Position numbers: made by a program | Part shown: piece after piece, positions 24,001 to 27,000 of the stretch | Position numbering within the stretch: position 1 is the first letter of the stretch | Layout: each line of letters starts with the position of its first letter | Origin: Longimicrobiales bacterium | GTDB taxonomy: Bacteria > Gemmatimonadota > Gemmatimonadetes > Longimicrobiales > Gaopeijiaceae | DNA: 64,000 nt | Assembly (NCBI GenBank): GCA_965249725.1 | Contig: CBDFMQ010000002.1 | Span: 576,001 to 640,000, forward strand | Direction: 5' to 3'

Positions 24001-27000
24001 CGTTGGACGACGGGAAGCGCCGGATGAGCCAGCCGCCGTGCGTCCCTGGACGTTCGCGACCGATGGGGGATGGAGTCGCGGCATTTTCGGCATCCCCACG
24101 GTGGGCTTCGCGCCGGGGGAAGAACGCTTTGCCCACACGAATAGAGAGCGACTGGACGTGGAGGAGGCGGAGTGGGCCTTCGCCCGATATCCCGACCTCA
24201 TTCTCGCTCTCCAGGACGCGCTCTCCGAGTAGCATCAGGGGTTGATTCCACGAGTCTCCGTGCGGGGGTGCAAGCGGGGGTACAAAACCCCCCGGCATGG
24301 CCTATATTTACGGGCTCATCCCGCTCCGCCTCTGTGGCGGGGCCCGTGCACTTACGGACCGTGGGAGAAACACTATGCGGCTGTATGAGATCGTCTACAT
24401 CTTCGATGCGACCCTCGACGAAGATGCGATCAACAAGAAGTTAGAGAAGTTCCACCCCCTCGTGACCGGGAGCGACGGAGAGGTCATGTCCGTCGATCAT
24501 TGGGGTGTCCGCCAGATGGCCTACCCCGTGAAGAAGCAGAAGGCGGGGTACTACGTCGTCGCTCAGGTTCGCTCCACTCCCGATGGACTGCCGGAGTTCG
24601 ATCGGATCCTCAAACTCGATCCCGAACTGATGCGGCACCTCGTGGTGGTGAACGAAGGCGAGCCGACTACAGGAAGGTCGATCCTCGGGGAGCGCCCGGT
24701 CCAGGCCCGCGACGACGACGACGAGGATGATCGACCGGTGCCGGATGAAGCGGCGTCCGAAGAGGGAGATGAGGACACGGTCAGGCGGCAAGGACCTCCG
24801 GAGTTCTCAGGGGGCCGTGGACGTCGGCGTCGGATGGAGGGGCCGGTCATCGAGCTCCTCAACTATAAGGACGTCTCGACGCTGTCTCAGTTCATGACCG
24901 AGCAAGGCAAGATTCTGCCGAAACGAACGACTAAGGTCACGGCTCGCTTCCAACGGCAGCTCGGTACGGCCATCAAGCGAGCCCGCTACCTTGCGCTGAT
25001 TCCGTATTTGAGGGACCACGAGGTCTAGGCCTCCTCGGAGCGGATTTCTTGGATTCCACCACGCGGCCGGAGCGCACTTGGCTACGTGCCGCCGCGCTGA
25101 TGCTCATCACGCTGGGGCTCGCTGTCGTCAGCTCCGGCGTGTTGGTGGCCGTGCCGTTTCTGGTTCTCGCCGCCGTGCTCGGTGCTCGCAGGTTTCCGAC
25201 GGTAATGGCCGCGGTACTGGCGGTGGTGGTTACGCTGGGAGCTACGGCCCGCGGCGGCATCTGGTATCTGGAACGGGGATGGACAGTCATCCTGGCCGGT
25301 TTCTTCGTGGTTCTCACGATGCGGTCGCCGGGAAGCAGGTTCTTGCCGCGAGCCCTCGGGGCGGTGGTCGGTACCTTCGGGTTGGTGGCGCTCCTCATGG
25401 TGGTCCGACCGGGGTCGTGGGCCATGGTGGATTGGTTCGTCACCGAGGGGATTATGAGGAGCGTGAGCCTCGCCATGAATCTGGTGAGTGCCTGGGATCC
25501 CGACATGGTGATCCCGACCACCATGGTCAACACGGCGTTCGAAACCGCGGCCCTTCAGGGGCGGCTGTTTCCGGCACTGCTCGGCCTCTCGTCCGTCGCG
25601 GGACTCGGCGTGGCGTGGTGGGGGTATGTTCGACTCGCCACGGAGAGTGATCAGGGACTGGGTCCACTCAAGGACTTTCGGTTCAACGACCACTTTGTGT
25701 GGCTGTTGGTCCTGGGCCTGACTCTGATCGTGTTGGGGCTGGGGGATGCATGGACACGGGCGGGCACGAACGCCGTCGTGTTCATGGGTGGGCTTTACGC
25801 AGTGCGAGGTGTCGCTGTGGTCTTGTTCTTTAATGGTGGCATTTCGCTATTAGGGTTTTTCGCGATGGCGCTCGGCATGTTGGTCTTTGCGCCTTTATTG
25901 ACGATGGGTGCCCTGGTCATCGGCGTCGGCGATACCTGGCTCGATCTGCGAGCCAAAGCCGAAGCGTTGTCCAGCGGCACCACAGACACGTAGACGGAGA
26001 CGGTCCATGAAGCTCATTCTGAGGAAGACGGTTGAGACGCTCGGAGGTCAGGGCGACATCATCGACGTAAAGCCCGGTTACGCGCGTAACTACTTGATTC
26101 CCCAAGGCCTCGCCTATCAGGCGAGTGACGTCAACCTGAAGAGGTTGGAGGAAGAGCACGCGCGGGCCGAGGAGAAGGCCAAGCACGACTACCTCGAGGC
26201 ACGCCGACGGGCGGTGCAGCTCGACGGGAAGTCGCTCGTCTTCCACGTCAGGGCGGGGGAGGACGGCAAGCTGTTCGGGTCGGTCACGAACGCCGACGTC
26301 GCCGATCAGCTGAATCAGTTGGAGCTGGATTTCGAGGTGGATCGCCGCACGGTCATACTCGAGGAACCGCTGAAGACGCTCGGCGACTTCGGCGTGCCGG
26401 TTCGCCTGCACAGCCAGGTCGAGGTCGAGGTCCGGGTGCAAGTGGAGCGCGGCGAGGAAGAGTAGGCTGCTACTCGAGGGCGGCATGGGAGAACAGGCGA
26501 GCACCGACGTGTCCGAAATCGGCCAAGACGTAGAGCGAGCTGCTGAGCTTGCCCTTGAGCTCAAGGCTGCCGACGTGGTCGTACTCGATCTGCGCGGTAT
26601 TTCGAGCGCGACCGACTACTTCCTGCTGGCCACCGGACAGTCCGACGTCCAGGTGAAGGCGATCGGTGATCACATCATCGGGGAACTCAAGAACCAGGGT
26701 GTCCGGCCCGCCCACGTGGAAGGGTTGGAGGGAGGGCGCTGGGTGCTCATCGACTACATTGACTTCGTGGTGCACGTGTTTCATCCCGGAGCTCGGGAGT
26801 TCTACCAGCTGGAGCTTCTTTGGGGAGACGCCCCCAGACACGAGTTCGAATGACCTGCACCAATACCACATACAGGGGCCAAGCCTGTTTACAACACTGC
26901 CGGTCGTCGTGTAGCTTGTCATGTCAGCCCATACGGACTGCATCACGGACGTACGACGGAGGCCGTAATCCAATCCACATCAGGAGCGTAGGGCCCGTTG

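Follow-up and report, generated by a model that had tools for sequence, protein, structure and literature searches.

Probable single-chain bS6–bS18 in Gaopeijiaceae: a near-universal ribosomal protein fusion that recurs in other lineages

In the window (the whole stretch of DNA analyzed, 64,000 nt), ribosomal proteins bS6 and bS18 were encoded by one rpsF–rpsR fusion gene (24375..25028, + strand), the product of which very probably stays a single tethered chain that folds as an ordinary S6:S18 heterodimer and does the usual jobs in the 30S platform and in autoregulation. Translation of 24375-25028 was stop-free over 217 aa and contained two complete domains: (i) Pfam Ribosomal_S6 at aa 4-91 (E 1e-24), scoring over the full domain above the curated cut-offs of PF01250 (86.7 bits vs. 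27) and TIGR00166 (81.6 vs. 42.9), and (ii) Pfam Ribosomal_S18 at aa 162-209 (E 4e-21), scoring above those of PF01084 (75.4 bits vs. 21) and TIGR00165 (74.2 vs. 38.75). The protein had zero Cys residues. Each domain matched only once in the whole genome (4.16 Mb, 96% complete), both times inside this frame, which was thus the sole copy of each part. The initial annotation had reported bS6 and a Cys-free bS18 in a single 217-aa frame, the absence of any other rpsF or rpsR, and the presence of both domains in the best 120 of 1665 database relatives; these claims were borne out by translation, Pfam, and TIGRFAM, by the whole-genome searches, and by Pfam, respectively.

Five segments were distinguished along the chain, all on the + strand. 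The bS6 domain (aa 1-95; 24375..24659) included the Pfam match at aa 4-91, and its predicted model superposed on solved bS6 chains (8cwo_F: Z 12.4, rmsd 1.5 over 96 residues); bS6 rows filled both fold-search lists for the whole-chain model, where no bS18 rows appeared, and of 186 PDB sequence matches the 60 best included no entry that spanned both domains. It was followed by a conserved bS6 C-terminal extension delimited by alignment (aa 96-108; 24660..24698; pLDDT 86-91), and a GEPT-type C-terminal bS6 segment was also found in the separate bS6 of family f3 and of two unfused family genomes, G074 and G081 (see below). Next came a variable acidic linker (aa 109-139; 24699..24791) that was predicted to be disordered and had D or E at 14 of 31 residues, a conserved new bS18 head (PPEFSGGRGRRRR-M-EGP; aa 140-158; 24792..24848) occupying the former place of the zinc knuckle, and the bS18 core (aa 159-217; 24849..25025), in which zinc ligands three and four were replaced (C to T and H to F).

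The sequence comparison was extended to 94 distinct intact fusion genes, which encoded 206-345 aa, apart from one 174-aa gene in which part of bS6 was deleted. Linker length was variable, with a median of 39 aa, and a maximum of 166 aa, and median D+E content was 44%; since 285 of 291 loci were stop-free at about 206-345 aa (see below), continuity of the frame withstood large linker indels. Unfused bS6 proteins of the sister families carried a tail of 22-34 aa past the domain, acidic where read, and comparison of these sequences suggests that the linker descended from such an acidic bS6 tail. Family f7 (L177-L180 and L160) had separate bS6 proteins of 181-234 aa with very long acidic tails; the f7 genes were mostly in frame with rpsR, still stopped, and their tails resembled the long linkers of the fused genus g53. 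The head PPxFxG-x-R-G-RRRR-x-[ED]GP was present in 88 of the 94 genes and was conserved as protein, with synonymous codons varying freely.

The residues CxxC...C..H of bS18 are zinc ligands, and bS18 occurs in zinc-binding (C+) and zinc-free (C-) forms. All four ligands were gone in the fusions: only 1/94 genes had any Cys in the bS18 part, at a non-ligand site, and the position of the ligand His was Phe in 85/85 matched genes. CxxC...C..H was retained by unfused relatives in family f2 (8/9, the ninth being frameshifted there), family f3 (13/13), G074 and G081 (2/2), and other families (40/45). Five separate bS18 proteins were Cys-free, and zinc loss therefore does not require fusion; separate bS18 that had lost the ligands independently were noted in families f4/f5 (L163, L166, L167, L194, and L200).

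AlphaFold prediction with 35 sequences gave a pTM of 0.51 and placed bS18 poorly, while that with 125 sequences gave a pTM of 0.76, with both domains at pLDDT of at least 90 (aa 161-210 for bS18) and a disordered linker (54-60 over aa 111-150, about 54 over aa 141-150). The latter pTM suggests a defined domain arrangement, in a model that solved heterodimers may bias, and the domain geometry would be that of native S6:S18. Some fusions from other lineages (see below) need only about 8 residues to bridge the domains (P0178, P0187, P0213, and P0260), so the C-terminus of bS6 and the N-terminus of bS18 lie near each other. S6 and S18 heterodimerize before rRNA binding (PMC4647458). The fusion gene would yield one polypeptide, its halves joined by a flexible acidic loop, that presumably stays uncut and would join the 30S platform as one chain.

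A polyprotein is an improbable alternative, in which the whole chain would be cleaved within or close to the conserved PPEF/SG, freeing bS18 with a basic, native-like N-terminus; Prp processing of L27 and ubiquitin–ribosomal protein fusions are precedents for cut ribosomal precursors. The motif was conserved as protein (88/94 genes) next to an unconserved linker, its region was predicted to be poorly ordered, and an aromatic followed by a small residue may resemble a protease site, but the residue following F varied (S, T, Q, or A), the motif was missing from genus g26 (L004 and L006), which was still fused, and fusions from other lineages had no PPEF-type motif, some with linkers of only about 8 residues. 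As for Prp itself, no match to its family was found in any of the five genomes searched, with the control matching in 3/14.

Production of bS18 also or mainly from an internal start, here Met154, is less probable still and would be very surprising. Met154 (ATG) lay ten residues before YKD, roughly at the position of the former second Cys, and the same arrangement occurred in 40/94 genes; however, this position was a non-start codon in 50/94 genes, 36/94 had no ATG, GTG, or TTG anywhere in the stretch lying 45 to 7 codons ahead of YKD, and a candidate start with a Shine–Dalgarno (SD)-like 4-mer existed in only 7/94, in contrast to the 93/94 with such a 4-mer before the bS6 start (slightly wider motif set). 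No SD preceded Met154, and SDs are in use in this genome (at 30% of first ATGs, against 10% of deep ATGs). The internal start that the initial annotation had listed as not excluded is now unlikely, 36 genes having no candidate start codon.

A profile built from 35 fused proteins was run over all 314 Gaopeijiaceae genomes, of which 301 matched, every one being accounted for, and 13 gave no match. The family name is that of the initial annotation; database homologues carried the phylum label Gemmatimonadota. Among the genomes listed, 150 plus 62 had a single stop-free match along the whole profile, as did 57 of another 59, where one was interrupted by a contig start; 28 genomes gave two profile matches, and 16 of these proved on reading to be intact fusions, mostly with long linkers. 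Nine loci truncated by a contig end or an N gap were set aside, together with the foreign-type locus of G068. Intact fusions were thereby counted at 285 of 291 informative family loci and fusion-type sequences at 289 of 291, the difference being four frameshifted fusion-type sequences (G117, G139, G401, and G427) that probably reflect assembly indels. The G068 locus was rejected as probably mis-binned: it contained rpsF and rpsR of foreign type separated by a 547-nt gap on a 4-kb contig, and it grouped outside the phylum. An ssb-like gene lay between these two genes (G068:C9, L007/L212).

That the fusion is an artefact of assembly or gene calling has practically no probability left. Single-contig S6+S18 chimeras do exist, 11 of 50 non-family two-domain matches looking like deletions, frameshifts, or otherwise doubtful cases, and P0306 is a probable frameshift product, but 285 genomes carried the fusion with the family-specific head motif, and the same linker was found on contigs from four studies (four public runs, 0-1 differences, the best-matching run possibly being the source sample of the assembly). 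For the Gaopeijiaceae fusion, the artefact is refuted.

The remaining two informative loci, G074 and G081, each representing its own genus, had separate genes with a TAG inside the profile match; their junction consisted of an acidic bS6 tail, a stop, one codon, an ATG, and a bS18 with CxxC...C..H. The fusion is therefore near-universal but not fixed in Gaopeijiaceae. The earlier reading of this locus held as to the fusion itself (285/291 in the family), its single copy, the loss of Cys, and the absence from sister families (0/133, see below), and failed on fixation.

In the two sister families, bS18 matched in 133 of 140 genomes and was fused in 0/133 (0/127 without the six unpublished genomes G151, G170, G217, G228, G270, and G276 included in this count), so that the absence previously noted was reproduced on a larger sample. 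All nine sister-family frames of at least 149 aa were separate genes when read out, and the remainder were of at most 120 aa. Separateness had earlier been judged by S18 lying in 73-153-aa frames, but six unfused sister-family genomes had frames of 205-246 aa, since no stop interrupted the S18 frame where it extended into the -1 frame of rpsF; open-frame length alone was accordingly dropped as a test of fusion. Across 125 non-family genomes of the phylum (including the unpublished G151 and G507, with the check covering all but five genomes that had no listed bS6 rows), no stop-free two-domain match was listed, and the loci read out were separate in 47/47 cases. G471 looked fused by coordinates and was rejected when a stop was found on reading.

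Two trees placed the unfused genomes relative to the fused ones. The RpoB tree (27 genomes, IQ-TREE, bootstrap; built without G081, G002, and G029, which were fragments, and G109, which had no match) recovered Gaopeijiaceae as one clade (100/99), in which G074 was the sister of the 17 fused genomes together (99/98). A quick S6+S18 tree (149 columns) paired G074 with G081 (97) and placed this pair next to the 11 fused rows as their sister group (97). A 19-kb region of G074 was syntenic with the window, and the family-type leader (see below) was present in both G074 and G081; these loci are thus native. The fusion arose once inside Gaopeijiaceae, after two unfused genera had branched.

As to its route, rpsF directly adjoined rpsR phylum-wide, and the two genes would have been in frame in the family ancestor (stop, one codon, ATG), an arrangement persisting in G074 and G081. 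Sister-family junctions were out of frame in 21/22 read, while other phylum loci had an in-frame junction without fusion in 17/45. Given the in-frame unfused junctions of G074 and G081, loss of a single stop codon is the simplest route: the acidic bS6 tail would then have become the linker, and the zinc site of bS18 would have been replaced by the PPEF-G-R-G-RRRR head at fusion or soon after. Intermediates, either fused with CxxC or separate without it, were not seen in Gaopeijiaceae, and we infer this order of events from its end states. Neither the in-frame junction nor zinc loss is a sufficient cause, since 17/45 loci were in frame and unfused and 5/45 separate bS18 had no CxxC.

Upstream of the gene, a putative promoter element, the -10-like hexamer TATATT (24303..24308, +), appeared as TAnAnT in a consensus drawn from the aligned upstream sequences of 40 loci; a sigma-70 scan called no promoter at this position. 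A 13-nt insertion repeating adjacent sequence was found at window position 24271, upstream of the putative promoter, in three of four independent assemblies, and this difference is a strain variant or a collapsed repeat. The rpsF leader (24318..24367, +), defined by RNAalifold on 40 loci, was of the S6:S18-binding-motif type and comprised hairpin H2 (24323-24343), CCG (24359-24361), and, one base further, the SD (24363-24367), with helix H1 closing on the SD; RNAalifold gave 10 pairs, five with compensatory changes (e.g., C-G 22 / U-A 9 / U-G 8). CCR plus SD was present in 93/94 fused loci vs. 4.9 expected from shuffles, with CCR 1-2 nt ahead of the SD, and the H2 motif in 84/94. Single-sequence folding paired the leader CCG differently from the covariation model, and an Rfam 15 scan of the leader gave no relevant match, only a chance SAM_alpha (E 1.7). 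The leaders of genus g12 (L020 and L025) had an H2 longer by about 30 nt and kept H1 and CCR.

On the protein side, K201 and R204 were invariant in 35 aligned fused proteins, and the motif A[IV]K[RK]AR was found in 91/94 fusion genes. We take these two residues, by motif position, to correspond to K71 and R74 of Thermus thermophilus. PMC3854524 describes the S6:S18-binding motif (H1 closing on the SD, H2, and CCR before the SD) and the reading of CCR by Lys71/Arg74, and PMC4647458 states that repression of rpsF needs the S6:S18 complex, neither protein alone being enough. Surplus fused chain would bind the CCR of the leader on the mRNA that encodes it, blocking the SD, so that autoregulation would be exerted by a single chain. 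Relative to the known rpsF leader, H1 on the SD, H2, and CCR were the same in fused and unfused relatives, whereas the repressor would be one chain and family members carried a small third hairpin. Anti-SD sequestration, as in Bacteroidetes (PMC7797042), was considered and found unsupported: the genome had a canonical anti-SD, SD enrichment, and bS21.

The surroundings of the fusion contained, upstream, prs, rplY, pth, a long membrane gene, presumably hppA, and an M20 peptidase gene. Downstream, 20 nt past the fusion stop, lay an ORF for a 314-aa hydrophobic, membrane-type protein (25049..25993, +) that had no Pfam match at E 0.1 and that we take, by position only, to be DUF2232/YybS-like, followed by rplI (bL9; 26007..26465, +; Pfam) and rsfS (26485-26853). 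The position of the hydrophobic gene between rpsR and rplI and the order of rplI and rsfS were kept in G074 and G081, and all three genes probably form one operon with the fusion. Further along the window, two tandem long genes (26998-28506 and 28528-31113) with long acidic/proline-rich middles stood upstream of an SMC-like gene; their N-termini looked related, and a SPOR-type C-terminus was strong in the first and weak in the second. A motif search for ssb found no match, being too crude to show absence. A tie between loss of RimK and the fusion was rejected for want of a pattern: two sister-family and two fused genomes tested had no full-length RimK-family match, and only G074 had one. This match (G074:C48:28157-28723, E 2e-22) stood alone among the five genomes tested.

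The initial annotation had overlooked that S6+S18 fusions recur in many other lineages, and the trait is not peculiar to one family. An exhaustive profile search returned, among its best 150 representatives, 57 that carried both domains (Pfam confirmed two domains in 39 of 40 scanned): 7 were family-type, and the other 50 comprised 39 well-formed proteins and 11 dropped as doubtful. When 20 foreign fusions were looked up, 7 were backed by more than one cluster member or contig and 13 were single-contig singletons, for which reason some may be artefacts. An 85-row tree, which had few columns and left many forks open, spread the fusions over about ten groups, and a single clade for all of them was rejected (p-AU 2e-56). 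CxxC was missing from 37/38 foreign fusions, and the one that had it is likely to come from a frameshift; this is no proof of a link to fusion, because the separate bS18 of many source lineages already had no CxxC. In the ESM Atlas, two-domain clusters comprised 55-162 members for Gemmatimonadota and 55-88 for Pseudomonadota.

Two groups of foreign fusions were followed in genomes. Intact S6-S18 fusions were found in Legionellaceae (L243) and Legionellales (L320) MAGs of about 1.4 and 1.2 Mb; 2/41 genomes around the Legionellaceae MAG were fused, and a genome scan with gammaproteobacterial-type fusions gave 2 fused among the 80 loci listed. G586 (L332) had an intact fusion too, the gammaproteobacterial carriers being of 1.2-1.8 Mb. 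P0128, P0139, P0285, and P0286 made up a second Gemmatimonadota-type fusion group, Cys-free and without the PPEF head, that the domain tree nested within sequences of family f4 and that was not encountered in the 64 f4 genomes sampled; a shared origin with the family fusion was not rejected (p-AU 0.16), and the best tree separated the two. The fusion is thus both a subclade marker within Gaopeijiaceae and a recurrent architecture.

Compared to the known bS6:bS18 heterodimer (PF01250 and PF01084), both complete domains, the bS6 fold, and the order rpsF–rpsR ... rplI were the same, but there was one chain, in which neither the C-terminus of bS6 nor the N-terminus of bS18 was free, with an acidic loop of 40-170 aa and a new conserved head. 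As in C- bS18 paralogues, the zinc ligands were gone, but the fused bS18 was the sole copy rather than a zinc-regulated second paralogue, and it descended vertically from the family's own C+ gene (S6+S18 tree). Other database S6+S18 proteins shared the domain order and were mostly Cys-free; they differed by separate origins, other linkers, and no PPEF head, and were patchy where tested (the 2/41 above), unlike the near-universal fusion of Gaopeijiaceae.

bS6 and bS18 sit at the anti-SD and SD helix (PMC7797042 and PMC13009471), and the new basic head may matter for this reason. It is rather doubtful that the following hold jointly: fusion was taken in at least ten lineages as a route by which a tether replaces the stabilizing job of the zinc knuckle, the PPEF-G-R-G-RRRR head of Gaopeijiaceae was selected and reaches the SD/anti-SD helix, the acidic loop is an RNA-mimic chaperone, and initiation or assembly is altered. 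Adjacent genes of an obligate heterodimer are prime candidates for fusion, and so the fusion is mechanistically unsurprising and implies no new function.

The bacterial ribosome is commonly regarded as having a constant set of separate small proteins. No report of an S6-S18 fusion was found in the literature covered, which lay outside subscription papers and supplements and was partly represented by excerpts: "fusion" and "fused" were absent from PMC3353972, bioRxiv 2021.01.31.429008, PMC7782861, PMC11651109 (which describes strains of Gaopeijia maritima), and PMC11316326, and the part of PMC7203096 covered mentioned only unrelated fusions. The automatic JGI name "ribosomal protein S6/ribosomal protein S18" exists for the architecture, which apparently is undescribed in papers, though auto-labelled in databases. 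Because databases mostly label the fusion "S6", rpsR seems missing from annotation, and missing-rpsR calls deserve a corresponding warning.

A clade of about 290 species thus encodes two core proteins of the 30S subunit as a single chain, the pre-fusion state survives in two basal genera, and the fusion arose again elsewhere. A natural single-chain S6:S18 offers a handle on the roles of the heterodimer and of zinc in platform assembly and autoregulation, and for Gaopeijiaceae, the fusion provides a clear-cut shared trait by which the family can be rooted.
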